Positions 1 to 22,360 of a stretch of 60,319 nucleotides of DNA are shown here, in pieces. This DNA is from a virus (Duplodnaviria > Heunggongvirae > Uroviricota > Caudoviricetes), in IMG/VR virus record IMGVR_UViG_2870495154_000003. One strand, written 5' to 3'. The first letter of the stretch is position 1, and every line of letters begins with the position of its first letter. A model generated the notes under the pieces. It saw nothing but the letters and a program-made list of their open reading frames with translations, had not been told where the DNA came from and ran no database searches. The translations under genes were made by a program, and so were the position numbers.

Positions 1-90
1 GGTCATGGCCTCCATAGTGATGGCGGGTCCTCCTTGTGGGGTGCCCTGCCACGGGGCGGGAGCATCGCGGAAAAAGGCTAGTTTTTGCAT
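1..90 (-). CDS. Hypothetical protein, 5' fragment (start codon at 88..90; remainder lies before the window)
   Basis: Identical to the 5' end of ORF 10203..10577 (MQKLAFFRDAPAPW...). Confidence 0.4.
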   Translation of the reverse strand, partial: MQKLAFFRDAPAPWQGTPQGGPAITMEAMT

Positions 91-251
91 TTTTATTCGT
101 CATCACCACCAATGCAATATATTGATATGACTTGATGTTTTATTTTTCGGTGTCGATTTCGATTGTTTTTTGTTCATCACTGACGCATAACGCCCACCAG
201 CGCAACGCTGAAAGCCAGTCAGTAAACTGGCTTAGGTCATTGTGCACTACG

Positions 252-794
252 TTACTTGTCTTTATCCGACTGAAACTTATCAGGCACATTTCCGGTAGTT
301 TCCATCAGATAATCGGACAGCATTCGCGGGATGTTTTCATCAAGTTTTGTGCATGCGTTACAGGCTCTGACAACTTCTTTTTTCAGGCCATCCAGCATGG
401 CGGGGGTCATCTGTGGGAAGCTCCTTTGCATAGTAAGCGGCAGGCTGCCCATGATTGAAGAAATCTGACTCGCCAGTTTTGAAAGCGCATATATACAAAA
501 TTCCGTACTAATCACATCGCCGCGTTCGCGCTCGTTTTTAAGCTCCTGCGCCTCCGCCTGCGCTGTCAGCAATCTGATCCTGACTCGCAAAAGCTCATCA
601 TTATCAATCTCGCCTTTGTCGTCTGTAATCTGGTTAATTGCATTGCTAACCCGATTGTCTATTACGCTGGCAACATCATAAAACGCCTCGCGGCCTTTAC
701 GTTCAACGGGAGTCACTCCCCACTTGTCGAACGCTGTCGCACTTACACGGCAGCTTTGCGCCATGTTTTTTTTGTTCATCAGGTGCGATTTCAT
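252..794 (-). CDS. Terminase small subunit, lambda Nu1-like
   Basis: ORF 252..806 trimmed to the ATG at 792..794, which has a GGGGA SD 5 nt upstream (an ATG at 777..779 is an alternative). C-terminal half matches recalled lambda Nu1 (RLTxAQAxAQELKN..., FC, LPLxxQRxFP); the N-terminal DNA-binding region is diverged. Sits immediately downstream of a lambda-type cos. Confidence 0.8.
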   Translation of the reverse strand: MKSHLMNKKNMAQSCRVSATAFDKWGVTPVERKGREAFYDVASVIDNRVSNAINQITDDKGEIDNDELLRVRIRLLTAQAEAQELKNERERGDVISTEFCIYALSKLASQISSIMGSLPLTMQRSFPQMTPAMLDGLKKEVVRACNACTKLDENIPRMLSDYLMETTGNVPDKFQSDKDK

Positions 795-879
795 CAATAT
801 CCCCACTTAAGTAATGTTTCAGGTTGGTGTATTGGCTTTATCTTTTCCTTTTTATTCATAGAGATAGAGCGAACAACAA

Positions 880-995
880 AACCACCACCAGCACCCGAAA
901 AAGGCTCATAAATAGCGAAAACCCGCGAGGTCGCCGCCCCGTAACCTACCGGATCGCCGGAAAGGACCCGCCAGCCAGAACGGGCCCTAATTTCA
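880..995 (-). other. cos site region; cosN 12-nt cohesive-end sequence at 928..939
   Basis: Minus strand reads CGGGTCCTTTCCGGCGATCCGGTAGGTTACG-GGGCGGCGACCT-CGCGGGTTTTCGCTATTTATGA, matching recalled lambda cos (right end, cohesive end, left end) with a few substitutions in the cosQ-proximal part; sequence diverges beyond ~35 bp on the TerS side. Recurs in every copy (cosN at 11415, 21898, 32385, 42872, 53359). Confidence 0.8.
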
Positions 996-1379
996 TCAAC
1001 CAATCAACTTATAGCGACCATCCCGTGCATTGCGACGTACACGCTCAATCTTGAGGCATAGCGCCGCATCTGGCTTTTTTGGGACAGGTACGCGGCAATA
1101 TTCAGAAGCTCGAGGAATATTGTTTATCCAGTCGATCACTTCACTTAAATACCAGGCCTTACGCCCTTTCGTAACCTGTACGCGTTCGGGGAACTCTCCG
1201 CGAGCCTCAAGGTTTAGCAATGTGCGACGGCTAAGGGTAGTAAGTTCCATCACCTGATTCATATCAACAAGGCGTTCACTTAAACGCATTTTGTCAGCAA
1301 TAGCCTTTAATTCCTCTACTGCTGGATCCGGATACATCATTTCGGCAATTGGCTTAAGGTCATTGTAATGATTCTGCAT
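996..1379 (-). CDS. AlpA/Xis-like helix-turn-helix DNA-binding protein (127 aa)
   Basis: ORF with GGGGGA SD 5 nt upstream; central motif LTTLSRRTLLNLEARGEFPERVQVTKGRKAWYLSEVIDWI resembles AlpA-family HTH. Lies between the decoration gene and cos/TerS. Confidence 0.6.
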   Translation of the reverse strand: MQNHYNDLKPIAEMMYPDPAVEELKAIADKMRLSERLVDMNQVMELTTLSRRTLLNLEARGEFPERVQVTKGRKAWYLSEVIDWINNIPRASEYCRVPVPKKPDAALCLKIERVRRNARDGRYKLIG

Positions 1380-1390
1380 TGTATCCCCCT

Positions 1391-1732
1391 TTACACACGA
1401 GCCAGCGGCTGAACAGAAATACCTGAGCCAACAAACGCGGCAACCTTTGCCGACAGTTCTTTTACAGACTCAGGCCAGTTCAGAGCATCAACATTTAAAA
1501 CACCTGTCTTATAAACCTGTGCCTGTGTTTTTTTCGCTGTGTCGATTTGTACAGCGGAAACATAAACCGCTTTACCTACGCTCGAACCATCCCATACCAC
1601 CAGTGCACCTGTTGCATCTTCCTGCATCAGTGGCGTAAATGCAGGAATTACCCCTTTATTAGCTGAAAATATCCCCAGCGTAGTCACCAGTGCTTCAGTG
1701 CCAGCCATGAGTTCAGTGTAATGAGTAGCCAT
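1391..1732 (-). CDS. Head decoration protein, lambda gpD-like (113 aa)
   Basis: Collinear similarity to recalled lambda gpD (PAFTPLM / PAMTPLM, LVVWDG / LVAWDG, YKTG / YKSG, NWPE / LWPE, AFVGSGIS / AFAGTAIS). Starts 10 nt after the capsid gene stop. Confidence 0.75.
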   Translation of the reverse strand: MATHYTELMAGTEALVTTLGIFSANKGVIPAFTPLMQEDATGALVVWDGSSVGKAVYVSAVQIDTAKKTQAQVYKTGVLNVDALNWPESVKELSAKVAAFVGSGISVQPLARV

Positions 1733-1741
1733 TGCTCCCCC

Positions 1742-2788
1742 TTAGCCAATGCGAACGGTAACAAAACGATTGATGCGGGCCGGTATTGGCTGTGGTGCTG
1801 AATGTGTCTGCACATATTCAATAGCCGGATCACCAGGCACAATATAGTTTTTCGGTGCAAGTTCGGCTTTAGTCAGCCCCATTCGGATTAGCTCCGGATC
1901 CTGAATACCGCCATAGGCGACAATCCCCTGAAGAGCCGTATTGCCAAGCACCATCAAATCAGGATCAAGGAAATGTTTTTCTGTTCCGTCCTCGTCGGTA
2001 TAACGCCCGCTGTAAACAACAATCGCAACATCGCCCATATACCCTTTAAAACTCACCGAATCACCAAGGTCTTTAAGGGCCGTTTCCAGTTCGGAATTAG
2101 AACCACGACGGGTATCCAAAGCCTCTTTTATCGCTCTGAATGAACGGTATTTCTTCCATACATTACCACCCATAATGATGATATTAGTGACGCCCTCACT
2201 AAATTCTGCGTAGCTCTCAATATCATCATTTGGATCAAAAGTTTCTTTATCCTTACCTGACCACTCAGTACCGCCAGACTGAGTGATGATATTTTGTGGT
2301 TTTATATTCCAGTCCAGCTCATAACGTTCAATACCATCGCCCTCAATGATATTTTTCCCCGTTGTGATTGCCTGAACAGCAAGCCATTCAATACGTGCAC
2401 GAATAGCTTTAGCCTGATTTACAATCGCCTGTTTAACTTTAATATTACGCGCCCCAAAAGCATTGTATTGCTCAGGTGACACACCAGCAGGGCGCACAGC
2501 TAACTTATTTGGATCAATGCTGCTTTTCGGCTTCATATAACCTGGACGAATTGTTTTTGATTCGTATCCCTCATCTCGTGAAACTTTACTGCCCACCATA
2601 GGAGAGCAAAACGCCGCGATCGGGATATTTGGATCGTCGATCGTATCAAGAATAATGTCTCTCGATTCAAACATTACCGAGCGAGTGAAAAACAAACTGG
2701 TAAACAACGCATTTAATTTTTTTTGCACATCTTCAGCATTAGCCACCTGCACAAGCTGTGTAGGCGAATATAAATCAACCATACTCAT
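1742..2788 (-). CDS. Major capsid protein, lambda gpE-like (348 aa)
   Basis: ORF 1742..2869 trimmed to the ATG at 2786..2788 (MSMVDLY..., AAAGAGG SD adjacent; lambda E begins MSM). Motifs NIITQSGGTEWSGKDKETFDPNDDIESYA, DTRRGSNSELETALKDLG, GDVAIVVYSG, MVLGNT, QSAP match recalled lambda gpE. Confidence 0.85.
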   Translation of the reverse strand: MSMVDLYSPTQLVQVANAEDVQKKLNALFTSLFFTRSVMFESRDIILDTIDDPNIPIAAFCSPMVGSKVSRDEGYESKTIRPGYMKPKSSIDPNKLAVRPAGVSPEQYNAFGARNIKVKQAIVNQAKAIRARIEWLAVQAITTGKNIIEGDGIERYELDWNIKPQNIITQSGGTEWSGKDKETFDPNDDIESYAEFSEGVTNIIIMGGNVWKKYRSFRAIKEALDTRRGSNSELETALKDLGDSVSFKGYMGDVAIVVYSGRYTDEDGTEKHFLDPDLMVLGNTALQGIVAYGGIQDPELIRMGLTKAELAPKNYIVPGDPAIEYVQTHSAPQPIPARINRFVTVRIG

Positions 2789-2953
2789 CCTCTTTACATT
2801 CATTACAAATAATTGTGAATATATTCTATTACCGATGTCTGCTATGCGAATACATGCAACCAAGTGCAATGTTGTATAAAATATGCCGTAACAACTTCAG
2901 TGCTGATAATTCGTGTTAATGTATTTACTTCCTTTGGTCGGGATTTATGTAGC

Positions 2954-2995
2954 ATGCCGGAAAATCTATTTTTTTCCGGCATCTTTTTGTTTGCA
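2954..2995 (+). terminator. Intrinsic-terminator-like hairpin (11-bp stem ATGCCGGAAAA / TTTTCCGGCAT, 7-nt loop) followed by CTTTTTGTTTG
   Basis: Read directly from the sequence. The T-tract follows the stem only on the plus strand; on the minus (gene) strand the hairpin sits 17 nt after the ssb stop with no U-tract. Confidence 0.5.
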
Positions 2996-2999
2996 GAAT

Positions 3000-3422
3000 T
3001 TAAAACGGTATATTATCGCCGTACGGATCATCATTCCCCGACTGTTGTTTTGCCCTGTTCAGTGCGTCAGTGGCCTGCCCCTGCTGGCCTTTTTTGCCGC
3101 CCGGTCGCGCCGTTCGCGCACTGATTACACTGTCTGCGATAACCTGCCAGCCCTGCCGCGTTTCGCCGTTCTGGCCTGTCCACTGGCTTACCTGCATGTT
3201 ACCCGCCACGCTCACCAATTCGCCTTTGTGGTGTTTTGCCAGTGCGTCGGCCTGTCTGCCAAACGCCAGGACGGATAACCACATCGTCGCCGTTCCGTCA
3301 TCTGCCTGGCTGCACGGCAGGGGAACCGCCATACTCGCCATCGCCATTTGTGTCCCTTTGCTGGTGGTCTTTAACTGCGGGTCAGCCACCAGCCGCCCGT
3401 AAGCCGCTATCTGTGCTGTCAT
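3000..3422 (-). CDS. ssb: Single-stranded DNA-binding protein (140 aa)
   Basis: OB-fold-like core (WLSVLAFGRQADALAKHHKGELVSVAGNMQVSQWTGQNGETRQGWQVIADSV), Gly/Gln-rich linker and acidic C-terminal tip DDPYGDNIPF, comparable to E. coli SSB ...DFDDDIPF. ATGA overlap with the upstream ORF. Confidence 0.8.
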   Translation of the reverse strand: MTAQIAAYGRLVADPQLKTTSKGTQMAMASMAVPLPCSQADDGTATMWLSVLAFGRQADALAKHHKGELVSVAGNMQVSQWTGQNGETRQGWQVIADSVISARTARPGGKKGQQGQATDALNRAKQQSGNDDPYGDNIPF

Positions 3423-3664
3423 GCTGTCTGCTCTCCGGTTTTAACGTTGATGGTTGTCACCTGTTCCGCTTCGGCAATCTCCCGTTCTGTCAGCGTGGCA
3501 AAGTTTGCAGCTGCCGTTGTCATGAATGAGCTAATCAGTTCGGGATGTGCTTTCGCATATCCTTCCCCGGCGTTGCGGTCGATGATTTTTATCGACACCC
3601 TTAACCAGTGTTCCGTCAAATCAAGGGCGTGCGATTGTGATTTTTTTGTGTGCTTCGCTGTCAT
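3419..3664 (-). CDS. Hypothetical protein (81 aa), translationally coupled to ssb
   Basis: ORF in track; its stop overlaps the ssb start (ATGA). No recognisable motif. Confidence 0.45.
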   Translation of the reverse strand: MTAKHTKKSQSHALDLTEHWLRVSIKIIDRNAGEGYAKAHPELISSFMTTAAANFATLTEREIAEAEQVTTINVKTGEQTA

Positions 3665-3712
3665 AGGCTTTATCTCACAGCAGTAAATTAAAATTTTTGC
3701 GTTTTAACCCTT

Positions 3713-3937
3713 CACCTGTTCACCTTTTGATATTTTATCTTTTAATTCATAATGTTAAGGGGTGAACAGTTTCACAAAAACTATTCACCAACTGTTCACC
3801 ACTGTTCACCCTTGAAGCTCAATAAACAATCAAAAAGGTGAACAGTGAATAGTTTGGTGAACAGTTCATAAATAACTGTTCACCCTATAACATACTGATA
3901 CAAAAGATATTTATGACAGGGTGAACAGTGGTGAACA
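3713..3937. repeat. Iteron cluster / putative replication origin: about 9 copies of GGTGAACAG in both orientations in AT-rich DNA
   Basis: GGTGAACAG or CTGTTCACC at roughly 3716, 3762, 3793, 3803, 3838, 3859, 3877, 3919 and 3929, directly 3' of the primase-helicase gene. Recurs in every copy. Confidence 0.7.
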
Positions 3938-3951
3938 GTTATTCCATAAGT

Positions 3952-5769
3952 TTAATTTTTGCTATCGTCATTAGTGACCGATACACATGATGGCATCCAG
4001 TCTTCTGATTCCTCCGTCAGTGTCACGTTTGAACGCAAACCGTGCTTCGTTTTCCGTTTCATATACTCCCTGCCATATTCCGCCATTGCCCCCGGCATAT
4101 CTTTACCGAAGCGCGTCAGTGTTACAGGTTTACCAAACCCATGTGCCTTCATATAAGCCAGATAGGCATGATAGAGATACCTGCGCGGGCTGAATGGCAC
4201 AATTTCAGCATTACCCACTAACAGGCCATCACACATTACCGACGCCATGAGATAGCCGCAGAAGTCCACCAGCGAATCACCTTCACGCTTTATCGCGAGT
4301 GCTTCTTCTGATTTCTGCTGCTCATATAAAAGGCGTCTGGCTTCGTCCTGGTCAGCAAACCGTGTAAGCAGATGACGAATCACTACCGCCAGCTCACCTT
4401 CTATTTTTTCCGCCAGCATTGAATCGCGTTCGTTCTCCGGTACAACTTCCGAAAAATTGAATATCACCCGACGGCGCGAGATCCCCCCACTGCGGTCACT
4501 GAATGACATAGCGTTATTGTTAACCGCCAGCACTACTGCCGGGATACGCGTTGAATATGGGGCTTTATGTTTTGGGTCGATTGCCACCTTGTCACCGCCT
4601 GTAATAGCCTTAATTCCCGCCCCATCACCAGCGTAGCGGGTCATATCCGGCATGATAATCAGCGAAAAGCCAACCACTAACGCGCGTTCCCTTGCATCTT
4701 CCAGCGCCTTCATGCTCGCTGATACTGTATTAGCCTTACCCGCCAGCATGGTGCAAATCTCCGCCATCACGCTTTTACCACTTCCCCCTGGACCTGTTAC
4801 CTCAATGAATAACTGCCAGTCGTACCGGTTCGCCAGCACCATGAATAATGCAGCCAGTACGCGATCCGCCTTGCGGTCATTCTCAGCCACCGAACGGCGT
4901 AACCACTTCCAGAAATTCGGCGCATGTGTTGCCAGCGTTTCCCCCTCTGCTGGTGGGCTGAAAGGTAATTCACTGGCAATTAACAACCAGTCGTTTTTGT
5001 TATGCTCCCGAAAATTACCTGTTCTGGTATCAAATACCCCGTTACTGAATCCAATCAGGTTACGGGCTGTATTCCCCATTACAGGCAAACTTAACTTCAT
5101 GGTATCGACCGCCGATTTAATGGCGTTCTGCGAATAGCTGATCTCCGCATCAATGAAAATCTGTGCCATAGCTCGCTGTAATTCTTTATCCTGTACTGGC
5201 TCCCATACAACGCCGTTGTAATGGTGAACAGTGTCAGAGTCAGCATGAATCGCCAGTTCACCGCCATAATGTGCCAGGAGAACTTCGCCGCGTTGACTTG
5301 CTCCCATCTGGTTAAGCGCCAGTGATGAAGCGTTATCGTCTTTTACCCGCTCTTTTTTCTTTACAGGCAGTTCAACTACCTTTTTCTTTTCCGCCAGCTC
5401 TCCCCGCTCACGTTCCAGATATTCGCGCCAGTTCTCCCGTTTCTGGCTGTGCATTCCTTCAGGGTAATAATCAGCATCCCTGACACCTGCCGCTGCCAGT
5501 TTCTGCCCGATGGTATTAACAAGCCCCGGACGCAATAACCCCGCCTGGTAGAGACGCACGCGATAGCGTCCGTCCGGTACGATTTGCAGGTTGTCCAGTT
5601 CGGCAAGTTGTTGCTCTCCAAGCCAGACAGGTGGCACGTTATCGCCAGCCAGTCGCCCGTCCTGTTCCTGCCACTGCGTCGCATGTGCCCACGCATCACT
5701 ACCCGCAAAAATGATGACTTCCGTCATTTTGTCACGCGGCTGGTGTTTTAAATTTGGCGCTTTTTTCAT
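3952..5769 (-). CDS. Primase-helicase, P4-alpha / D5-type (605 aa)
   Basis: ORF 3952..5784 trimmed to the ATG at 5767..5769 (GGAGAGAG SD; ATGA overlap with upstream ORF). Walker A GPGGSGKS in the C-terminal NTPase region; overall layout typical of satellite/PICI primase-helicases. Confidence 0.85.
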   Translation of the reverse strand: MKKAPNLKHQPRDKMTEVIIFAGSDAWAHATQWQEQDGRLAGDNVPPVWLGEQQLAELDNLQIVPDGRYRVRLYQAGLLRPGLVNTIGQKLAAAGVRDADYYPEGMHSQKRENWREYLERERGELAEKKKVVELPVKKKERVKDDNASSLALNQMGASQRGEVLLAHYGGELAIHADSDTVHHYNGVVWEPVQDKELQRAMAQIFIDAEISYSQNAIKSAVDTMKLSLPVMGNTARNLIGFSNGVFDTRTGNFREHNKNDWLLIASELPFSPPAEGETLATHAPNFWKWLRRSVAENDRKADRVLAALFMVLANRYDWQLFIEVTGPGGSGKSVMAEICTMLAGKANTVSASMKALEDARERALVVGFSLIIMPDMTRYAGDGAGIKAITGGDKVAIDPKHKAPYSTRIPAVVLAVNNNAMSFSDRSGGISRRRVIFNFSEVVPENERDSMLAEKIEGELAVVIRHLLTRFADQDEARRLLYEQQKSEEALAIKREGDSLVDFCGYLMASVMCDGLLVGNAEIVPFSPRRYLYHAYLAYMKAHGFGKPVTLTRFGKDMPGAMAEYGREYMKRKTKHGLRSNVTLTEESEDWMPSCVSVTNDDSKN

Positions 5770-6059
5770 TTCTGCTCTCTCCACGCGGCAATCATGTTTT
5801 TCAGTTCCTGTAGTTTTTTATCCACACGTGACACATGGTTATTTCTGGAAAGCGGGATTTCCCGCCTGAATCTGCTAATAAAGATCTCCACGTTCAGCGA
5901 ACTATGAAATGAATAGCCATCACGAATAAAATAAACACGGTCAAACATCAGTTCTTTTACCGTTACTCTGTTACCGTTCTTATCCAGATAAATAGCGCCG
6001 GGGATAATTTTTGGGTGTGCATAACCGCTGGCAGTCAAGCCAGATAAATATGTTCTCAT
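5766..6059 (-). CDS. Hypothetical protein (97 aa), translationally coupled to primase
   Basis: ORF in track; stop overlaps the primase ATG; GGGGA SD upstream. Confidence 0.5.
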   Translation of the reverse strand: MRTYLSGLTASGYAHPKIIPGAIYLDKNGNRVTVKELMFDRVYFIRDGYSFHSSLNVEIFISRFRREIPLSRNNHVSRVDKKLQELKNMIAAWREQK

Positions 6060-6065
6060 GATTAT

Positions 6066-6386
6066 TTATCCCCGATTTGAATCAGTATTCGCTTTCTTTA
6101 TGGCATTTAATGCATCTGTGGCATTTTCAATGGTGCACCGTAACGAAATATCAAACTGCCCAAGCATTGCCAGTAACAAGCCAATATTCCCCATGTCAAT
6201 GCGCATAGCCTTTTCGTCATATTCCTCATTTTCTGACGCATGCCACATCAGGCTACCAATTGACGCAACAGCCATTGATATATTGTCAGTAGCCCCATCC
6301 GCAGCGGAATAAACCTTTTTAGCAATATCATGCTCACAGTTAAAATGCGGATTAATCAGGTACTGGTAATTTGACATATCAGGCAT
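6066..6386 (-). CDS. Hypothetical protein (106 aa, [15 protein letters not shown]...)
   Basis: C-terminal part of ORF 6066..6821; the upstream part of that ORF is Pro/Arg/Leu-rich and looks off-frame. ATG at 6384..6386 overlaps the stop of the upstream ORF (ATGCCTGA). Confidence 0.45.
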
Positions 6387-6918
6387 GGCACACCCCCTGG
6401 CGAATACGGGCGGCGAATACAGCAACACAACCGGACGGGCAGCGGTTACGCGCTTCACGTTCCGTCCAGGCGGTGACGTGGATGATTTGATGGTCTGACG
6501 CGCCAAAGATGATAAAGCGCCAGAGAAAGGCGGTTTGAGAATGTACAAGGGTAGGGATAGTAGCCATGTTGGCAGCCTCCTTTGACAGTGAAGAATTTCC
6601 ACCGCAGGAAACGCCAATTTCGCTGGCGGTGGACTGAACGGGGTTGGCGTAACCGGCGTCAAAGGGAACCGGCGCTTCCGAAGAAGCCCCCGCCCAGCCC
6701 ACCATAACTTTGATGTGAGCGAATGCGGACGATAAAAAAGACGCTGGCGCGTCATATATCGCCTTTGACATTTCCAGGACGCCAATCCCGGCACCAGATT
6801 TTGCTGGTGCGGATAAATCATAGCCCTGGCTTGCAGTGGCGATCAACTGGTTTTTTACACCCGCTTTATTCAGGTTGTGCGAGTCCCGCCCTTGCGGGTG
6901 TGTGGTATGATTTCTCAT
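6379..6918 (-). CDS. Hypothetical Ala/Gly/Ser-rich protein (179 aa; alternative 62-aa start at 6567 with AGGAGG SD)
   Basis: 3' part of the 429-aa ORF 6379..7668; in-frame ATG at 6916..6918 with GAGG SD, just beyond the divergent operator region. Confidence 0.3.
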
Positions 6919-7015
6919 AGCGACCTCGATACTATCGTTATCGTTGGTGGTTAGAAGCCCCGTTACTGCTCCAACAGTGCGGGGTTTCGTCGTTTCTGCA
7001 CCTTGCATCAACAAG

Positions 7016-7067
7016 GTGTTGAACACCAATGTAAACTCAGGTGTTGAACACGTCAAGTGTTGAACAC
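7016..7067. promoter_or_regulatory. Operator-like array: three copies of the 11-bp palindrome GTGTTGAACAC
   Basis: Sites at 7016..7026, 7041..7051 and 7057..7067, in the ~200-bp divergent intergenic region between minus-strand ORF start 6918 and plus-strand ORF start 7118. Recurs in every copy. Confidence 0.6.
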
Positions 7068-7117
7068 TTGTTTTTTTTCCTGCATACTGCATTTGTTTTT
7101 TGTGAGGGGTACACAAC

Positions 7118-7297
7118 ATGGCGACAAAAGCAGTAAACGCAAAATCACAAACAGTTGCGGCAAGGGTTCCGCATGAAGTTATGAACAATGTTGAGGCGGT
7201 AAAAATGCCTGGTGAAAGTACAGGGCAATTTGTAACAGCAGCATTAAAGCGAGAAGTTGAATACCGCCAGCGACGCAAGGCTAAAGAGCAAGAATAA
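7118..7297 (+). CDS. Small ribbon-helix-helix-like DNA-binding protein (59 aa), putative regulator
   Basis: Not in the ORF track (below 60 aa). ATG at 7118 with GAGGGG SD 7 nt upstream; translation [59 protein letters not shown]; directly downstream of the palindromic operators. Confidence 0.55.
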
Positions 7298-7354
7298 TCA
7301 CTATCAGCGCTGTGGTGTGAGGTACTCCGGCGCATTGCTTTACAGGTCGGCACT

Positions 7355-7564
7355 ATGAGCAAAAAATACCTATCCACTGAAGAGATTTTCGCAGAACAAC
7401 GAAGATTGCTTTTACAGAGCATTGTTGCACGCCAGAAAGAAAAGGCACACGCTAAACAAATGCCACCAAATACAGAACCAGCGCCTACAAAATTTGCGCT
7501 TGATGAGTTTCTCAATAAACAGCCCCGGGTAATGAAAGCTAACAGGAACCGCCCACCAGGCTGA
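7355..7564 (+). CDS. Hypothetical protein (69 aa)
   Basis: ORF in track, co-oriented with the RHH gene and followed by a plus-strand terminator. Confidence 0.4.
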
Positions 7565-7628
7565 TCACATTGCCCACCAGCCAGCAAATCGCTATGATGG
7601 CTGGGCTTATGTTTAGTGTATTCCCACT

Positions 7629-7660
7629 GGCGACCTCTGATCCGGGTCGCCTTTGTTTTA
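7629..7660 (+). terminator. Rho-independent terminator (GGCGACC-tctgatccg-GGTCGCC followed by TTTGTTTTATG)
   Basis: Read directly from the sequence; sits between the convergent plus-strand ORFs and alpA. Confidence 0.6.
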
Positions 7661-7678
7661 TGTGTCATATGCCCCCCT

Positions 7679-7888
7679 TTACGCTGCCTTGCCTGAATTA
7701 ATGCGATCCCGGCTTTTAACCCATTCCATAACCTCGGACAGCAGCCAACCTACAGAACGACCGCCCAGATTACGGCGTGACGGGAAATTCCCTTTTTTCT
7801 CCAGTTCATAGCGTGTAGTGCGACACACTCCAGTTAACTTACGACATTCATCCTCACGGATTACGCGATCTTCATTTATTTCACGCAT
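7679..7888 (-). CDS. alpA: AlpA-family prophage regulatory protein (69 aa)
   Basis: Motif [43 protein letters not shown] is typical of AlpA-family HTH regulators; lies downstream of int. Confidence 0.8.
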
Positions 7889-8307
7889 ACAAAAACCTAC
7901 ATAAAAAATTACGTATATAAACTTTTCTCTTAGCTGTAGATATATGAGATCGGATATTACTTAGATTCTTTTTTCACCTCTTAAATTAAAAACACAACCT
8001 TGCTAAAGGCTTTGTTCGCTAAGGTTCGTAGAAGCTCGTTAGTGTTTAAAATCGTGTCACGAGTTTTTAAGCGATGCAACAAAAAATGTCGTTATTTGGC
8101 ATTACGCTTGAATTATCTCATTAAAAACAAATAGATAAACCATCAAGTGTTGGAACAATCAAGAAACAGAGAATAAAAGTTCAGAAGAAGACATTCCAAT
8201 TTTTTGATGGTTGACATATATAAAGCGAAGATATTTGCAGATATTTTCCGATATTCTACGATTTATTCACGGCTGTAATCTCTTAAAGAAAAAACAGCCG
8301 TAATTTG

Positions 8308-9546
8308 TCAAGAATTTTGGGTGTAAATTCGCGGGGTCATAACAACGATTTTTTCATCATTGTTCTGGAGAAGCTCGAGACGGTCTACCCATAGATTAAG
8401 AGCATCACGTTTTGCATCAAGATAACGGGAGTGGTTATAGACTCGTTGCATCCCCGGCATCTGGTGGGCGGTAAGCTGCTCGACAATATGCGGATCCACG
8501 CCTAAATCGTTCAGCATGGTTGTAAATGTGTGCCGGATGTCATGCAACGACCAGGGGGCTTGATTAATGCGTCTGTGTGCCGTTCTTCCGTACTCTGCTA
8601 CGGATGATTGCCCTTTCAGTTCTCCAAGCAATAAGCCCGTGTGCCTGTTCTTCTCCACCAGCTTCATGACAAACGGCAAGATCGCTTCCGGTATTGGCCT
8701 GAATATTGCTACCTTCGTTTTGCTGTGTTCTTTCGGCACAGTCCAGAGCATTTCTTTAAAATCCCATTCCTGAACCTCGGAGCGTCTTAGCTCAGTGGTA
8801 CGGCATCCAAAGACAATCAGAAGGCGAATTAAGGCGCTGTAGTACGGCGGGAAAATTTTTTCATCCAGTGCGCGGAGTAGCTCGCCAAGCTCCTTGTTTG
8901 TTAGCACTCGCTCGCTTATTTCTGCTTTTTTTCCCACATCACCTACGACCATATCATCAAGAACGTTACTGACGGCGTAGCGACGTTTACGGCAGTACTT
9001 AAGCGCCTGCTTGCATACCTGCAACAAAAAGCCGGCTGATACCGGATTACGCTTAGCAAGCTGGTCAAAACAGGCCAGCCAGTGGCGTAGCTCGCATTTA
9101 TCCAGCGGCATAGCACCAATCTGGCTGATTATGTGCTTATTGATACGGCTTTTCAGTGATTCGTGGTCAGTGCGCTTTTCCTTCGCATACGACTCAAGCC
9201 AGTAAGTGAGCGCGTCCTTAACCGTCACAGGGGCTAACGCTTCCTGCACTGTGTGATTAAGCTCATGGCGTGGATTTTTCCCCTCCGCCAGCCAGGCGCG
9301 ACACTGTGCCGCTTTTTCCCTGGCTGCTTTCAGGCTCAGATCGGGATAGTTGCCCAGTCTCAGGCGTTCCGGTGATACCTGCCTGCCAGTTCCGGCCCTG
9401 TAAGTGAAATACCAGGTTAACAGGCCGCTGGTGGAATGTCTTACGCTAAGATTGCCACCGTCATTAAAAAAGGCGTTTTTTGTGGTTGGTGATCCGCTTA
9501 ATTTTCGTAAAAGAGTGTCGCTAAGTCTATGAATTGCGCTGCTCAT
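8308..9546 (-). CDS. int: Tyrosine recombinase / integrase (412 aa)
   Basis: C-terminal catalytic region with R...HxxR...Y signature (RTAHRR..., HDIRHTFTTML..., MQRVYNHSRYL); P4-like length and layout. Confidence 0.9.
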   Translation of the reverse strand: MSSAIHRLSDTLLRKLSGSPTTKNAFFNDGGNLSVRHSTSGLLTWYFTYRAGTGRQVSPERLRLGNYPDLSLKAAREKAAQCRAWLAEGKNPRHELNHTVQEALAPVTVKDALTYWLESYAKEKRTDHESLKSRINKHIISQIGAMPLDKCELRHWLACFDQLAKRNPVSAGFLLQVCKQALKYCRKRRYAVSNVLDDMVVGDVGKKAEISERVLTNKELGELLRALDEKIFPPYYSALIRLLIVFGCRTTELRRSEVQEWDFKEMLWTVPKEHSKTKVAIFRPIPEAILPFVMKLVEKNRHTGLLLGELKGQSSVAEYGRTAHRRINQAPWSLHDIRHTFTTMLNDLGVDPHIVEQLTAHQMPGMQRVYNHSRYLDAKRDALNLWVDRLELLQNNDEKIVVMTPRIYTQNS

Positions 9547-9573
9547 GTTTCGCGTTTCCGGTCATCAAAATTA

Positions 9574-9645
9574 ACTACACCATTGACTACACCGTGCATC
9601 GTACAAGGGCAAACCGTGACGAACAATATCGAACAACCGCGAACA
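9574..9645. promoter_or_regulatory. Direct repeats upstream of int: ACTACACC x2 (9574, 9586) and CGAACAA x3 at 10-bp phasing (9619, 9629, 9639)
   Basis: Read directly from the sequence, 30-100 bp upstream of the int start codon. Confidence 0.4.
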
Positions 9646-9987
9646 AAGATCAACACGCTTTAATCATTATCATTTTCCGGCTATCCGTCATGAAGCTGGT
9701 GGATGATCTGCGTGGTGATTTCCACCATTCAGAGCAGGGGCGGTCATCATGACCATGCCATAACAAAAACCCCATATTCGTGGTTTTTCTGTGTCGGGGC
9801 TATTCTGCTGTTGCCGTGCTGGTGGATATTCTCCGGTATGCGGCTCCCCATATCGGCATCAGGCCCACCAGCGTGAAGCGTTTTTCATTTTTCGCGGGTA
9901 TAAAAAATCGATGGGGCTGGCAGTCCTGAAGACGTCAGGGTACAGAGATTTGACCCGCCCCTCCCTGTGCATGAGCACAATAAGTAA

Positions 9988-10011
9988 CCGAAGGCGGAAT
10001 TCCGCCCTCGG
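9988..10011. other. Perfect 14-bp palindrome GGCGGAATTCCGCC within an imperfect 24-bp inverted repeat
   Basis: Read directly from the sequence, in the non-coding region between the 124-aa ORF and int. Confidence 0.5.
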
Positions 10012-10073
10012 TACTTACATATGAGAAACGATATTTCTTCCACCGATACCCTTTATTTGGGTATTGCGAGTAA

Positions 10074-10152
10074 GCCCCAAAATCTGGGTGTTACTCTTAC
10101 TACCCAAACTACGGGTAGTTTCCGTAGTTTCATGGTCGAGTTGCAAATCTGC
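10074..10152. other. Cluster of three consecutive stem-loops (9-bp stem AAACTACGG / CCGTAGTTT; 6-bp GTTGCA / TGCAAC; 7-bp AACGCAA / TTGCGTT)
   Basis: Read directly from the sequence; 50-130 nt beyond the stop of the minus-strand ORF 10203..10577. Confidence 0.45.
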
Positions 10153-10202
10153 AACTCACCCACCAGCCAACGCAATTTTGCGTTATCGGGAATATCAGCA
10201 AG

Positions 10203-10577
10203 TTACCGCCGCAGTCGTTCCGGCTTCTTCCACTGGTAAGTATTTTTCGCGCTCTCCCTCCGTTGTTGAGAACGGCGACGGTATGCCAGCAACTCAAGGA
10301 CTCTGGTTCGTATGTTGCGCATATCCACGCCGTTAAGCTCAATACCATCACGGCGCATCACCTCAGCAACAACACGCGCGTAATTTTCGGCTATCACGCT
10401 GTCCGGCTGCGTGGCCTCCTGTTCGCCAGCCTGCTGGCTGATTCCGGTAATACTGCGGATTATCCCGAGCGCTTCGGTCTCGGTCATGGTCATGGCCTCC
10501 ATAGTGATGGCGGGTCCTCCTTGTGGGGTGCCCTGCCACGGGGCGGGAGCATCGCGGAAAAAGGCTAGTTTTTGCAT
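10203..10577 (-). CDS. Hypothetical protein (124 aa; probable true start at 10485..10487 giving 94 aa)
   Basis: ORF in track, last gene downstream of TerS on the minus strand. GGAGG SD is best spaced (8 nt) for the third in-frame ATG (MTETEALGIIR...). Confidence 0.4.
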   Translation of the reverse strand: MQKLAFFRDAPAPWQGTPQGGPAITMEAMTMTETEALGIIRSITGISQQAGEQEATQPDSVIAENYARVVAEVMRRDGIELNGVDMRNIRTRVLELLAYRRRSQQRRESAKNTYQWKKPERLRR

Positions 10578-10738
10578 TTTTATTCGTCATCACCACCAAT
10601 GCAATATATTGATATGACTTGATGTTTTATTTTTCGGTGTCGATTTCGATTGTTTTTTGTTCATCACTGACGCATAACGCCCACCAGCGCAACGCTGAAA
10701 GCCAGTCAGTAAACTGGCTTAGGTCATTGTGCACTACG

Positions 10739-11281
10739 TTACTTGTCTTTATCCGACTGAAACTTATCAGGCACATTTCCGGTAGTTTCCATCAGATAAT
10801 CGGACAGCATTCGCGGGATGTTTTCATCAAGTTTTGTGCATGCGTTACAGGCTCTGACAACTTCTTTTTTCAGGCCATCCAGCATGGCGGGGGTCATCTG
10901 TGGGAAGCTCCTTTGCATAGTAAGCGGCAGGCTGCCCATGATTGAAGAAATCTGACTCGCCAGTTTTGAAAGCGCATATATACAAAATTCCGTACTAATC
11001 ACATCGCCGCGTTCGCGCTCGTTTTTAAGCTCCTGCGCCTCCGCCTGCGCTGTCAGCAATCTGATCCTGACTCGCAAAAGCTCATCATTATCAATCTCGC
11101 CTTTGTCGTCTGTAATCTGGTTAATTGCATTGCTAACCCGATTGTCTATTACGCTGGCAACATCATAAAACGCCTCGCGGCCTTTACGTTCAACGGGAGT
11201 CACTCCCCACTTGTCGAACGCTGTCGCACTTACACGGCAGCTTTGCGCCATGTTTTTTTTGTTCATCAGGTGCGATTTCAT
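10739..11281 (-). CDS. Terminase small subunit, Nu1-like (copy B)
   Basis: Identical translation to 252..794. Confidence 0.8.
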   Translation of the reverse strand: MKSHLMNKKNMAQSCRVSATAFDKWGVTPVERKGREAFYDVASVIDNRVSNAINQITDDKGEIDNDELLRVRIRLLTAQAEAQELKNERERGDVISTEFCIYALSKLASQISSIMGSLPLTMQRSFPQMTPAMLDGLKKEVVRACNACTKLDENIPRMLSDYLMETTGNVPDKFQSDKDK

Positions 11282-11482
11282 CAATATCCCCACTTAAGTA
11301 ATGTTTCAGGTTGGTGTATTGGCTTTATCTTTTCCTTTTTATTCATAGAGATAGAGCGAACAACAAAACCACCACCAGCACCCGAAAAAGGCTCATAAAT
11401 AGCGAAAACCCGCGAGGTCGCCGCCCCGTAACCTACCGGATCGCCGGAAAGGACCCGCCAGCCAGAACGGGCCCTAATTTCA

Positions 11483-11866
11483 TCAACCAATCAACTTATA
11501 GCGACCATCCCGTGCATTGCGACGTACACGCTCAATCTTGAGGCATAGCGCCGCATCTGGCTTTTTTGGGACAGGTACGCGGCAATATTCAGAAGCTCGA
11601 GGAATATTGTTTATCCAGTCGATCACTTCACTTAAATACCAGGCCTTACGCCCTTTCGTAACCTGTACGCGTTCGGGGAACTCTCCGCGAGCCTCAAGGT
11701 TTAGCAATGTGCGACGGCTAAGGGTAGTAAGTTCCATCACCTGATTCATATCAACAAGGCGTTCACTTAAACGCATTTTGTCAGCAATAGCCTTTAATTC
11801 CTCTACTGCTGGATCCGGATACATCATTTCGGCAATTGGCTTAAGGTCATTGTAATGATTCTGCAT
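11483..11866 (-). CDS. AlpA/Xis-like HTH protein (copy B)
   Basis: Identical translation to 996..1379. Confidence 0.6.
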   Translation of the reverse strand: MQNHYNDLKPIAEMMYPDPAVEELKAIADKMRLSERLVDMNQVMELTTLSRRTLLNLEARGEFPERVQVTKGRKAWYLSEVIDWINNIPRASEYCRVPVPKKPDAALCLKIERVRRNARDGRYKLIG

Positions 11867-11877
11867 TGTATCCCCCT

Positions 11878-12217
11878 TTACACACGAGCCAGCGGCTGAA
11901 CAGAAATACCTGAGCCAACAAACGCGGCAACCTTTGCCGACAGTTCTTTTACAGACTCAGGCCAGTTCAGAGCATCAACATTTAAAACACCTGTCTTATA
12001 AACCTGTGCCTGTGTTTTTTTCGCTGTGTCGATTTGTACAGCGGAAACATAAACCGCTTTACCTACGCTCGAACCATCCCATACCACCAGTGCACCTGTT
12101 GCATCTTCCTGCATCAGTGGCGTAAATGCAGGAATTACCCTTTATTAGCTGAAAATATCCCAGCGTAGTCACCAGTGCTTCAGTGCCAGCCATGAGTTCA
12201 GTGTAATGAGTAGCCAT
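11878..12217 (-). pseudogene. gpD-like decoration gene, frameshifted in copy B
   Basis: Two 1-bp deletions in C-runs (near 12139 and 12160) relative to other copies; the track shows only a 78-aa ORF 11878..12114. Confidence 0.6.
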
Positions 12218-14434: not shown

Positions 14435-16252
14435 TTAATTTTTGCTATCGTCATTAGTGACCGATACACATGATGGCATCCAGTCTTCTGATTCCTCCGT
14501 CAGTGTCACGTTTGAACGCAAACCGTGCTTCGTTTTCCGTTTCATATACTCCCTGCCATATTCCGCCATTGCCCCCGGCATATCTTTACCGAAGCGCGTC
14601 AGTGTTACAGGTTTACCAAACCCATGTGCCTTCATATAAGCCAGATAGGCATGATAGAGATACCTGCGCGGGCTGAATGGCACAATTTCAGCATTACCCA
14701 CTAACAGGCCATCACACATTACCGACGCCATGAGATAGCCGCAGAAGTCCACCAGCGAATCACCTTCACGCTTTATCGCGAGTGCTTCTTCTGATTTCTG
14801 CTGCTCATATAAAAGGCGTCTGGCTTCGTCCTGGTCAGCAAACCGTGTAAGCAGATGACGAATCACTACCGCCAGCTCACCTTCTATTTTTTCCGCCAGC
14901 ATTGAATCGCGTTCGTTCTCCGGTACAACTTCCGAAAAATTGAATATCACCCGACGGCGCGAGATCCCCCCACTGCGGTCACTGAATGACATAGCGTTAT
15001 TGTTAACCGCCAGCACTACTGCCGGGATACGCGTTGAATATGGGGCTTTATGTTTTGGGTCGATTGCCACCTTGTCACCGCCTGTAATAGCCTTAATTCC
15101 CGCCCCATCACCAGCGTAGCGGGTCATATCCGGCATGATAATCAGCGAAAAGCCAACCACTAACGCGCGTTCCCTTGCATCTTCCAGCGCCTTCATGCTC
15201 GCTGATACTGTATTAGCCTTACCCGCCAGCATGGTGCAAATCTCCGCCATCACGCTTTTACCACTTCCCCCTGGACCTGTTACCTCAATGAATAACTGCC
15301 AGTCGTACCGGTTCGCCAGCACCATGAATAATGCAGCCAGTACGCGATCCGCCTTGCGGTCATTCTCAGCCACCGAACGGCGTAACCACTTCCAGAAATT
15401 CGGCGCATGTGTTGCCAGCGTTTCCCCCTCTGCTGGTGGGCTGAAAGGTAATTCACTGGCAATTAACAACCAGTCGTTTTTGTTATGCTCCCGAAAATTA
15501 CCTGTTCTGGTATCAAATACCCCGTTACTGAATCCAATCAGGTTACGGGCTGTATTCCCCATTACAGGCAAACTTAACTTCATGGTATCGACCGCCGATT
15601 TAATGGCGTTCTGCGAATAGCTGATCTCCGCATCAATGAAAATCTGTGCCATAGCTCGCTGTAATTCTTTATCCTGTACTGGCTCCCATACAACGCCGTT
15701 GTAATGGTGAACAGTGTCAGAGTCAGCATGAATCGCCAGTTCACCGCCATAATGTGCCAGGAGAACTTCGCCGCGTTGACTTGCTCCCATCTGGTTAAGC
15801 GCCAGTGATGAAGCGTTATCGTCTTTTACCCGCTCTTTTTTCTTTACAGGCAGTTCAACTACCTTTTTCTTTTCCGCCAGCTCTCCCCGCTCACGTTCCA
15901 GATATTCGCGCCAGTTCTCCCGTTTCTGGCTGTGCATTCCTTCAGGGTAATAATCAGCATCCCTGACACCTGCCGCTGCCAGTTTCTGCCCGATGGTATT
16001 AACAAGCCCCGGACGCAATAACCCCGCCTGGTAGAGACGCACGCGATAGCGTCCGTCCGGTACGATTTGCAGGTTGTCCAGTTCGGCAAGTTGTTGCTCT
16101 CCAAGCCAGACAGGTGGCACGTTATCGCCAGCCAGTCGCCCGTCCTGTTCCTGCCACTGCGTCGCATGTGCCCACGCATCACTACCCGCAAAAATGATGA
16201 CTTCCGTCATTTTGTCACGCGGCTGGTGTTTTAAATTTGGCGCTTTTTTCAT
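14435..16252 (-). CDS. Primase-helicase (copy B)
   Basis: Identical translation to 3952..5769. Confidence 0.85.
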   Translation of the reverse strand: MKKAPNLKHQPRDKMTEVIIFAGSDAWAHATQWQEQDGRLAGDNVPPVWLGEQQLAELDNLQIVPDGRYRVRLYQAGLLRPGLVNTIGQKLAAAGVRDADYYPEGMHSQKRENWREYLERERGELAEKKKVVELPVKKKERVKDDNASSLALNQMGASQRGEVLLAHYGGELAIHADSDTVHHYNGVVWEPVQDKELQRAMAQIFIDAEISYSQNAIKSAVDTMKLSLPVMGNTARNLIGFSNGVFDTRTGNFREHNKNDWLLIASELPFSPPAEGETLATHAPNFWKWLRRSVAENDRKADRVLAALFMVLANRYDWQLFIEVTGPGGSGKSVMAEICTMLAGKANTVSASMKALEDARERALVVGFSLIIMPDMTRYAGDGAGIKAITGGDKVAIDPKHKAPYSTRIPAVVLAVNNNAMSFSDRSGGISRRRVIFNFSEVVPENERDSMLAEKIEGELAVVIRHLLTRFADQDEARRLLYEQQKSEEALAIKREGDSLVDFCGYLMASVMCDGLLVGNAEIVPFSPRRYLYHAYLAYMKAHGFGKPVTLTRFGKDMPGAMAEYGREYMKRKTKHGLRSNVTLTEESEDWMPSCVSVTNDDSKN

Positions 16253-16542
16253 TTCTGCTCTCTCCACGCGGCAATCATGTTTTTCAGTTCCTGTAGTTTT
16301 TTATCCACACGTGACACATGGTTATTTCTGGAAAGCGGGATTTCCCGCCTGAATCTGCTAATAAAGATCTCCACGTTCAGCGAACTATGAAATGAATAGC
16401 CATCACGAATAAAATAAACACGGTCAAACATCAGTTCTTTTACCGTTACTCTGTTACCGTTCTTATCCAGATAAATAGCGCCGGGGATAATTTTTGGGTG
16501 TGCATAACCGCTGGCAGTCAAGCCAGATAAATATGTTCTCAT
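16249..16542 (-). CDS. Hypothetical protein 97 aa (copy B)
   Basis: Identical translation to 5766..6059. Confidence 0.5.
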   Translation of the reverse strand: MRTYLSGLTASGYAHPKIIPGAIYLDKNGNRVTVKELMFDRVYFIRDGYSFHSSLNVEIFISRFRREIPLSRNNHVSRVDKKLQELKNMIAAWREQK

Positions 16543-16548
16543 GATTAT

Positions 16549-16869
16549 TTATCCCCGATTTGAATCAGTATTCGCTTTCTTTATGGCATTTAATGCATCT
16601 GTGGCATTTTCAATGGTGCACCGTAACGAAATATCAAACTGCCCAAGCATTGCCAGTAACAAGCCAATATTCCCCATGTCAATGCGCATAGCCTTTTCGT
16701 CATATTCCTCATTTTCTGACGCATGCCACATCAGGCTACCAATTGACGCAACAGCCATTGATATATTGTCAGTAGCCCCATCCGCAGCGGAATAAACCTT
16801 TTTAGCAATATCATGCTCACAGTTAAAATGCGGATTAATCAGGTACTGGTAATTTGACATATCAGGCAT
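16549..16869 (-). CDS. Hypothetical protein 106 aa (copy B)
   Basis: Identical to 6066..6386. Confidence 0.45.
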
Positions 16870-17401
16870 GGCACACCCCCTGGCGAATACGGGCGGCGAA
16901 TACAGCAACACAACCGGACGGGCAGCGGTTACGCGCTTCACGTTCCGTCCAGGCGGTGACGTGGATGATTTGATGGTCTGACGCGCCAAAGATGATAAAG
17001 CGCCAGAGAAAGGCGGTTTGAGAATGTACAAGGGTAGGGATAGTAGCCATGTTGGCAGCCTCCTTTGACAGTGAAGAATTTCCACCGCAGGAAACGCCAA
17101 TTTCGCTGGCGGTGGACTGAACGGGGTTGGCGTAACCGGCGTCAAAGGGAACCGGCGCTTCCGAAGAAGCCCCCGCCCAGCCCACCATAACTTTGATGTG
17201 AGCGAATGCGGACGATAAAAAAGACGCTGGCGCGTCATATATCGCCTTTGACATTTCCAGGACGCCAATCCCGGCACCAGATTTTGCTGGTGCGGATAAA
17301 TCATAGCCCTGGCTTGCAGTGGCGATCAACTGGTTTTTTACACCCGCTTTATTCAGGTTGTGCGAGTCCCGCCCTTGCGGGTGTGTGGTATGATTTCTCA
17401 T
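16862..17401 (-). CDS. Hypothetical Ala/Gly/Ser-rich protein (copy B)
   Basis: Identical to 6379..6918. Confidence 0.3.
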
Positions 17402-22349: not shown

Positions 22350-22360
22350 TGTATCCCCCT

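Follow-up and report, generated by a model that had tools for sequence, protein, structure and literature searches.

Among the cos-type phage-inducible chromosomal islands (PICIs) found in Gram-negative bacteria, the only packaging mechanism that has been worked out is that of the Rpp proteins, which are 144–153 residues long; EcCICFT073, an island that encodes RppA, is packaged into phage-sized heads (PMC6739421). The gene for a terminase small subunit (TerS), terS, is present in some Gram-negative PICIs, and a 10.5-kb PICI, EcCIIHE3034, has been listed at the cspD–clpS locus (Fillol-Salom et al. 2018). Precedents for a TerS encoded by a satellite are the TerS of the Staphylococcus aureus pathogenicity islands (SaPIs) and the place of terS as a core PICI component, as which it is counted by SatelliteFinder (PMC6092414; bioRxiv 10.1101/2022.09.14.508007). 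Islands with TerS are at least as common in Escherichia coli as those with Rpp, and no study of their packaging was found. Here we describe the TerS gene of a PICI contained in a 60,319-nt stretch of DNA (IMG/VR record IMGVR_UViG_2870495154_000003, in what follows the window). What the data support is a TerS that belongs to the satellite, reads the satellite's cosB and relies on a lambda-family terminase to cut a shared cosN. To judge from sequence comparison, this TerS of a cos-mechanism PICI probably recognizes the cosB of its own island and couples to the helper terminase, directly or indirectly.

In the window, a unit of 10,487 bp is repeated head to tail 5.75 times. The unit is the excised form of an E. 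coli PICI of the catalogued cspD–clpS group, and it matches at 100% identity an island that complete genomes of E. coli carry between clpS and yljB/cspD. The TerS open reading frame (ORF; 794..252, minus strand, 180 aa) begins with ATG and is preceded, about 6 bases upstream, by a GGGGA Shine-Dalgarno-like motif; the window holds six copies of the gene, all of them intact and without sequence differences. A reading of the sequence alone had proposed a Nu1-like small terminase here, and the database comparisons bear this out. The Pfam family PF07471 (Phage_Nu1) matches with 77.6 bits (cut-off 30, E=1.1e-21), although the match spans residues 64–147 only, equivalent to profile positions 78–161 of 164; PHROG 57, a broader terminase small subunit family, covers residues 1–174 (E=2.3e-50); and lambda Nu1 aligns by BLASTP at 35% identity (E=1e-33). 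RefSeq labels the identical gene ‘terminase small subunit’ (WP_047634587.1). A sequence search of the PDB with TerS matched neither Nu1 nor Rpp. By these sequence criteria the protein appears to be a true Nu1-family small terminase. As in that family, the gene lies directly 3′ of cosN–cosB, with its start codon 145 bp from the cos end. In phages, the cognate large subunit gene (TerL) follows and overlaps it; here none is present anywhere in the unit, as the same reading had noted. Neither Pfam nor a tblastn search with the full complement of lambda-type late proteins detected a TerL, portal, protease or adaptor gene in the unit; from that set, which included TerL, W, portal, protease, FI and FII, only Nu1, D and E have homologues in the island. 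Likewise, no TerL adjoins a PICI TerS in the 80 IMG/VR loci and the genome contexts examined.

The cos site is sharply divided. Over cosQ and cosN it matches lambda at 62 of 65 positions, and the first 34 bp from the cohesive end are identical (34/34); divergence begins at bp 35, which is the cosN/cosB boundary, and identity then falls to about 31%. The earlier claim that the cosB-side DNA is divergent is thus correct. The cosB of the window is 23–31% identical to lambda or 21-like cosB and 85–86% identical to that of two PICIs carrying the same type of TerS (L005 and L007). When the upstream sequences of 82 loci were aligned (58 of them distinct), two blocks stood out as the most conserved of cosB, TGGTGGTGGTTTTGTTGTT and ACACCAACCTGAA, both near-invariant and separated by a spacer rich in A-tracts. 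The R3-like region has its inverted partner in the ACACCAACCTGAA block; in L005 and L007 the two form inverted repeats with a third copy beside the start codon, an arrangement that would recall the R3/R2/R1 layout of lambda. A repeat search in the window's own cosB (seed 6) found none, and the proposal of R sites consequently rests on the relatives and on conservation. The R3 site lies at bp 50–65 in lambda and at bp 48–60 in N15 (PMC9026076). The position of TGGTGGTGGTTTTGTTGTT coincides with both, and it has an 8-mer, TTGTTGTT, in common with N15 R3, which is not significant by itself (about 0.15 expected by chance, as a rough estimate). The two blocks are candidate TerS binding sites. In EcCICFT073, the proposed Rpp-binding ‘R3-PICI’ of cos1 (L004, 2612–2623) is CACCACCACCAC, at bp 54–65; the window contains the same triplet repeat in the opposite orientation, TGGTGGTGGT (878–890, bp 50–59), at a near-equal distance from cosN.

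The type of cosB is inherited together with the type of TerS DNA-binding domain. Throughout the alignment, the N15-type TerS described below always stands behind a cosB with the TGGTGGTGGTTTTGTTGTT and ACACCAACCTGAA blocks, whereas PICI TerS proteins with 21- or PhiR5-type N-terminal halves stand behind 21- or PhiR5-type cosB. In addition, some loci have a cohesive end of GGGCGGCAGACG, GGGCGGCTGACG or GGGCGTCGACCT instead of GGGCGGCGACCT: L022, L024 and L032, where it lies about 145 bp 5′ of TerS, and L008 and L030. Such islands include ones with the same cosB and TerS as the others, which suggests that the part of cos read by TerL may be swapped independently of cosB. No phage with these variant ends was present in the phage collection searched.

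The sequence-only reading had described a diverged N-terminal region and a C-terminal half that aligns well with Nu1. The asymmetry is real and well beyond chance. Identity to lambda Nu1 is 23% in the DNA-binding domain (residues 1–50), 3% in the linker (51–72), 51% in the core (73–125) and 38% in the C-terminal region (126–165), and the tail (166–180) has no Nu1 counterpart; divergence is therefore far from uniform, and the C-terminal part is indeed the closer one, although at about 40–50% identity it is no close match. The same unevenness separates the TerS of lambda from that of N15 (22% in the domain, 77% in the C-terminal half), and it is accordingly a property of the family, not a peculiarity of the PICI protein. 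Moreover, the N-terminal region is diverged only with respect to lambda. The nearest phage protein is N15 gp1, with 46% identity overall (E=2e-53) and 58% in the DNA-binding domain; the AFDKWGV stretch, which aligns with the lambda recognition helix, is identical to that of N15, and the wing is nearly so. This N15-type domain is shorter by about 11–16 residues in the helix/linker region that corresponds to lambda TerS residues 50–70. No phage in a collection of 50,697 records has an N-terminal half more than 48% identical to that of TerS.

An AlphaFold2 model of residues 1–64, with a mean predicted local distance difference test score (pLDDT) of 80.7, shows a β-α-α-β-β-α topology. The top PDB matches of this model in Foldseek are TerS DNA-binding domains: 7lwr_A (probability 1.00, template modelling (TM) scores 0.62/0.71), 6hn7_B of lambda TerS and 1j9i (both TM about 0.6). 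The domain is thus predicted to be a winged helix-turn-helix, in line with the winged-helix region suggested earlier. It was modelled alone because the model of the whole protein (pLDDT 70) gave insignificant matches only when its fold was searched. Among 41 PICI TerS alleles, the ratio of nonsynonymous to synonymous substitution rates (dN/dS) is 0.04 in the domain, 0.13 in the core, 0.18 in the C-terminal region and 0.27 in the tail, which makes the DNA-binding domain the most constrained segment. The C-terminal region and the tail are likely to be functional as well, since they are under purifying selection.

The C-terminal half has a history of its own. The core shows the highest conservation with the TerS of lambda, 21-like phages and N15 (49–51%), and the half as a whole is about 45–51% identical to PhiR5/R12-type proteins and 39% to N15; a lambda-like LDExIPxxLSxY motif is kept. 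One PICI TerS homologue (P0101) joins an N-terminal half 97% identical to the 21-like TerS of CFT073 prophage 4 to a C-terminal half that is 92% identical to that of the window protein, and 100% over residues 126–165. Another (P0120) combines a PhiR5-like N-terminal half with the other C-terminal allele, which it shares at 100% identity with P0054. N-half types and C-terminal alleles occur in every one of the four possible combinations (4/4). From these comparisons, the C-terminal half would be a module of the PICI lineage joined to interchangeable N-terminal halves, and double crossovers between two conserved stretches, cosN and the core that codes for AQAxAQELKN, would explain the chimeric pattern. 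The earlier equation of the C-terminal part with the gpA-contacting part of lambda Nu1 is not supported, and the data speak against a lambda-like C-terminus retained to fit gpA: besides its low identity to lambda and its PICI-lineage character, its alleles accompany three types of terminase, as described next.

Many TerS copies belong to PICIs that are embedded in a helper, as reported by Tommasini et al.; these islands interrupt the portal or capsid gene of a lambdoid prophage. Four intact helper–PICI composites were read (L098, L100, L102 and L103); E. coli EC28 (L100) took the place of an O121 locus (L099) because the latter is riddled with IS1 and has lost its helper terminase genes. One allele, WP_000835282.1, sits in L098 within a prophage whose Nu1 and gpA are identical to lambda at 179/181 and 636/641 residues, and in EC28 within a 21-like prophage whose own TerS, WP_000867568.1, is the protein of CFT073 prophage 4. 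A second allele, WP_044190367.1, occurs in strain 48 within a lambda-type prophage (L102) and within a PhiR12-type prophage (L103). The eight cos sites of the four composites all have the same cosN (8/8); each helper has a cosB of its own and each PICI the PICI cosB, and the cosB boundary is the same in island and helper. The TerS C-termini of these helpers are only 31–42% identical to one another, and their TerL N-termini 38–53%. No match between C-terminal TerS allele and helper terminase type was found in the four composites.

Several of these loci deserve a further remark. In strain 48 (NZ_CP166879.1), the same embedded island, with identical integrase and TerS, occurs at 1.71 Mb (L102) and 2.78 Mb (L103), in the portal genes of two different prophages, the second of which also contains a Mu-like element in its tail region. 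The window and the portal-embedded island of L098 share a late module (SSB, the single-stranded DNA-binding protein, to TerS) that is 90–100% identical, while integrase, alpA and primase are only 38–48% identical. Within this module, the SSB, capsid, decoration and AlpA-like regulator genes (window 996–3422, L098 15474–18644) are 98–100% identical, and the two TerS proteins are nearly identical in the N-terminal half and about 80% identical in the C-terminal half. Whole modules thus appear to be shuffled between island backbones. Two related islands are decaying. Of one (L036, IMG/VR), only the capsid-to-TerS part is left in the helper portal gene. The O121 locus (L099, NZ_CP119441.1) contains, in the region read, four IS1 elements, three in the island and one in the helper head-tail joining gene, as well as a truncated integrase.

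Taken together, the earlier proposal of a specificity-swapped TerS that recruits a helper TerL is upheld as regards the pairing of domain and cosB and the presence of embedded PICIs in prophages that have their own TerS, cosB and TerL, whereas the recruitment itself is a matter of inference. The mechanism that we consider would run as follows. The island would excise and replicate to head-to-tail concatemers with one cos per unit. A helper TerL of the gpA type would nick at cosQ, cosN and their flanks, which it could do because these are copies of lambda-family sequence. The island's own cosB would be read by the island TerS through its N15-type winged helix-turn-helix, and the conserved oligomerization core and C-terminal region would couple this recognition to the helper terminase. 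The DNA would then be cut from cos to cos and packaged in heads built by the helper, probably as multimers of about four units. As the island is without a TerL of its own, TerS most likely serves to steer the helper packaging motor onto satellite DNA, either by engaging TerL directly or by assembling with the helper TerS.

A number of observations weigh against this account. No experiments on TerS-carrying cos-type Gram-negative PICIs were found in the literature searched. The C-terminal 40 residues are just 38% identical to lambda Nu1 and 30% to 21-like TerS; the latter value is also that between lambda and 21-like TerS, a difference that alters TerL specificity, the contacts with TerL being specificity-determining (PMC9026076). 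No phage in the 50,697-record collection has a C-terminal half more than 51% identical to that of TerS. Identical PICI alleles sit within prophages of lambda-, 21- and PhiR12-type terminase, and a simple matched contact between TerS and TerL is doubtful when one allele keeps company with terminases whose interface regions are 31–53% identical to one another. Embedding reflects the preference of the integrase for the portal gene, and the surrounding prophage is not thereby proven to be the helper. The N15 terminase has been reported to package lambda DNA (PMC9026076), and for this reason an N15-type domain may discriminate only weakly against a lambda helper. At fine scale, domain and cosB do not pair perfectly: one locus (L008) combines a 21-type domain with a PhiR5-type cosB. 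The Foldseek E-values of the N-domain matches are weak (0.04–0.2). Three explanations come into question: the C-terminal half may contact a region of TerL that is conserved, TerS may act in mixed assemblies formed together with the helper TerS, or embedding may misidentify the true helper.

Mixed assembly is at the heart of the main competing explanation, which we regard as unlikely. Here the PICI TerS would co-assemble with the helper TerS through the core or dimer interface, as Rpp does; the mixed complex would read the PICI cosB, the helper TerS would contact TerL, and packaging of the helper would be poisoned. The TerS gene occupies exactly the slot 3′ of cos that rpp holds in EcCICFT073-type islands, the core is the segment best conserved with the TerS of lambda, 21-like phages and N15, and the association of one allele with three terminase types has a parallel in Rpp, which acts with the TerS of lambda, phi80 and 21-type phages (PMC9026076). 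For the PICI TerS with a 21-type N-terminal half, heterodimers even seem likely because of the 97% identity to a helper TerS over the whole of that half. However, Rpp lacks the last 30–40 residues, while TerS keeps the full C-terminal region under purifying selection (dN/dS 0.18), and it retains the lambda-like motif. There is no detectable sequence similarity between TerS and RppA (hhalign probability 5%), and the mutations by which lambda TerS escapes Rpp map to residues 50–70 (PMC6739421), the very region in which the N15-type domain lacks about 11–16 residues.

Two further explanations fare worse. TerS might act in interference only, as a defence: a decoy that sequesters the TerL or TerS of the helper and so blocks phage packaging, while the helper TerS reads the PICI cos. 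Helper interference is a hallmark of PICIs, Rpp combines it with redirection (PMC6739421), and a PICI-specific C-terminal half could bind competitively. This is nevertheless improbable: the PICI cosB is without helper R sites and should for that reason be read poorly by the helper TerS, and selection constrains the DNA-binding domain more than any other segment, the domain being co-inherited with cosB, whereas a pure decoy needs neither property. It is harder still to regard TerS as a functionless relic of a decayed lambdoid prophage packaging module. The element does carry capsid and decoration homologues, which are dispensable for transfer and interference in EcCICFT073 (PMC6092414), and the islands of L036 and L099 are clearly decaying. 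On the other hand, dN/dS over the 41 alleles stays far below 1 in all segments, the gene is intact on hundreds of contigs (single alleles being found on hundreds) and in all six window copies, and its place behind a conserved cos is fixed, all of which make a relic scarcely credible.

Within the preferred account, that of an island TerS which reads its own cosB and couples to a helper terminase, a more specific proposal can be made for the C-terminal half, one that is conceivable but rather doubtful. It could be a ‘universal adaptor’ through which one satellite TerS uses the TerLs of the lambda, 21 and PhiR12 classes, while the cassette of cosB and DNA-binding domain is swapped among satellites and phages, recombining at cosN and at the core that codes for AQAxAQELKN. 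If so, the islands would split the two halves of terminase specificity, which is undescribed for phages; outside this setting, the TerLs of lambda, 21 and PhiR12 are each confined to the cognate TerS.

Elements of this type, and terS in them, are already catalogued. In the literature searched, the chimeric build of TerS, the PICI-specific C-terminal half, the coupling of cosB to the DNA-binding domain and the occurrence of one allele across helper terminase classes appear to be undescribed. The natural chimeras and the helper-embedded copies make an old question about lambda, the specificity of TerS for cosB as against TerL, directly testable. PICIs are being engineered as DNA-delivery vehicles, and a cos–TerS cassette serving several helpers would be a useful part.

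The remainder of the island conforms to a Gram-negative PICI of the EcCI type: about 10 kb in length, it contains an integrase, alpA, a primase, a late zone and a dedicated att site, and is devoid of tail or lysis genes. The gpD and gpE homologues are 38% and 42% identical to D and E of the helper, and the capsid and decoration genes are always present just upstream of cos in the islands. The small ORF that follows TerS on the circular map has a conserved counterpart at the same place in related PICIs. Ash/Icd-like genes are also present. On the minus strand, Rfam detects a C4 antisense RNA (6622–6709, 82 bits) and isrK (6734–6810, 75 bits), which correspond to the P4-type immunity RNA pair. 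Both lie inside a 429-codon ORF (6379–7668), of which only the C-terminal part matches Phage_ASH and which RefSeq calls an ‘ash family’ pseudogene.

Each unit of the window contains the attP junction, the site at which the excised element is closed: window 1–9636 aligns with chromosomal positions 15870–25505 (locus L001) and window 9619–12000 with 15001–17382 of the same locus. The six cosN sites are one unit apart, with one interval of 10,483 bp, and the ends of the window are not at cos sites. The only differences among the copies are six indels of a single base: unit 2 lacks four C, and unit 4 has an extra A and lacks one C. They resemble errors of long-read sequencing, and one truncates the decoration-protein ORF in unit 2. 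The junction and the 5.75 tandem units would fit excision and concatemer formation, although the array may be an assembly artefact. The coordinates of all features are collected in Table 1.

Table 1. Features of the PICI unit and of its TerS (window coordinates unless residues are stated; bp are counted from the cohesive end).
Feature	Position	Strand	Basis or remark
TerS gene, Nu1 family, 180 aa	252..794	(-)	Pfam, PHROG, BLASTP, RefSeq annotation
Further identical TerS copies	10739-11281, 21222-21764, 31709-32251, 42196-42738, 52683-53225		sequence of window
TerS, N15-type winged-helix domain	aa 1-50		
TerS, linker	aa 51-72		
TerS, conserved core	aa 73-125		
TerS, C-terminal region	aa 126-165		
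TerS, PICI-specific tail	aa 166-180		
cosB-equivalent DNA, bp 35-145	795..905	(-)	conserved with same TerS domain type
Second cosB block ACACCAACCTGAA, bp 110-122, candidate R2-like site	818..830	(-)	invariant in 58-sequence alignment
Candidate R3-like TerS site TGGTGGTGGTTTTGTTGTT, bp 50-68	872..890	(-)	conserved block; putative site
Right flank of cosN, bp 13-34	906..927	(-)	identical to lambda
cosN cohesive-end sequence GGGCGGCGACCT	928..939	(-)	identical to lambda
cosN copies, one per unit	starts 928, 11415, 21898, 32385, 42872, 53359		
Left flank of cosN, including cosQ	940..970	(-)	28/31 positions match lambda right end
AlpA-like helix-turn-helix protein, 127 aa, directly upstream of cos	996..1379	(-)	PF05930, PHROG 2790
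Lambda gpD (head decoration) homologue, 113 aa	1391..1732	(-)	Pfam HDPD
Lambda gpE (major capsid) homologue, 346 aa in RefSeq	1742..2782	(-)	Phage_cap_E, E=3.8e-41
Replication module: SSB	3000-3422	(-)	Pfam, RefSeq
Replication module: small ORF	3419-3664	(-)	Pfam, RefSeq
Replication module: D5-type primase-helicase	3952-5769	(-)	Pfam, RefSeq
Integration module: alpA	7679-7888	(-)	Pfam, RefSeq
Integration module: tyrosine integrase	8308-9546	(-)	Pfam, RefSeq
attP junction of excised element	9619..9636	.	two chromosome alignments overlap by 18 bp
Small ORF, 94 aa, just downstream of TerS on circular map	10203..10487	(-)	no family match

The closest catalogued island is EcCIIHE3034, with which the window island shares the integration locus, the size of 10.5 kb, the gene order and the type of cosB. 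Its TerS also has 180 residues and is 82% identical to that of the window; the C-terminal alleles differ, being of the KLDENIP type in the window and of the VADNLP type in EcCIIHE3034, and the window island has an AlpA-like gene where EcCIIHE3034 has two small ORFs. The published att core of EcCIIHE3034, ATGATAGTTAT, is not found in the window. A classification as a capsid-forming PICI (cf-PICI), a kind of island that encodes all of capsid, portal, protease, adaptors, TerS and TerL, was rejected, as the island has homologues of E, D and Nu1 only and is without portal, protease and TerL.

Among phage proteins, TerS resembles lambda Nu1 in its three-part layout of a cosB-binding domain, a central assembly region and a C-terminal region of TerL specificity, and the natural PICI alleles, which join different N-terminal halves to one C-terminal half, resemble the chimeric lambda–21 TerS made in the laboratory. 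In contrast to lambda and 21, the PICI C-terminal half matches no known phage specificity class and is followed by an extra tail of about 13–14 residues (some 15 alignment columns). With N15 the island has in common the type of TerS DNA-binding domain and the T/G-rich element TTGTTGTT about 50–68 bp from the cos end. The N15 cosB has a single R3, whereas that of the window is longer, with a conserved inverted second block; furthermore, in N15 a TerL of the phage's own comes after gp1, whose C-terminal half is close to that of lambda, while the island has a lambda-type cohesive end and a different C-terminal half.

The resemblance to Rpp (RppA/RppC of EcCICFT073-type islands; PDB 6HLK, 6HN7) is one of position. 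Islands beside phoQ carry a TerS homologue in the slot that rppA holds in EcCICFT073, where cos1 lies at 2559 and rppA at 2660 of L004. In both systems the gene lies in the late zone, directly 3′ of a lambda-like cosQ/cosN with an island-specific cosB, the order is capsid, decoration, small ORF, cos and then TerS or Rpp, and the helpers are of the lambda family; both proteins have a TerS-like winged-helix domain, which in TerS is predicted. The PICIs beside phoQ have two convergent cos sites around the TerS or Rpp gene (2559(+)/3309(-) in L004, and alike in L005, L007, L011 and L013; 7815/8776 in L012), whereas only one cos is present in the window island. Between its cos sites, L012 has a segment whose orientation is opposite to that of the remaining island, with the cosQ flanks swapped, which would be the expected outcome of recombination between inverted cos sites. 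Unlike Rpp, which is shorter, is without the C-terminal region and needs the helper TerS, the window TerS is full-length. TerS and RppA give no BLASTP alignment, the hhalign match being limited to the helix-turn-helix, and an RppA query finds RppC (6hlk) at 5e-31, which the TerS query does not. An identification of TerS as an Rpp was rejected on the grounds of sequence and of its full length with C-terminal region, and as the profile comparison with RppA is not significant, we make no claim that Rpp derives from TerS.

The TerS of SaPI1 and SaPIbov1 is likewise a satellite-encoded homologue of the helper TerS family in an element without TerL, and the proposed role, pairing with the helper TerL and redirecting packaging to the satellite's own site, is the same. 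The SaPIs differ in headful (pac) packaging, in the family of their TerS and in having a separate inhibitor, Ppi, whereas the system described here is of the cos type with a 12-nt cohesive end, its TerS belongs to the Nu1 family, and those portions of cos that TerL reads are copies of helper sequence; a partner resembling Ppi was not identified in the window island. By analogy with these systems, the TerS of this island would be closest in function to the SaPI TerS, and in position and cos logic to Rpp.

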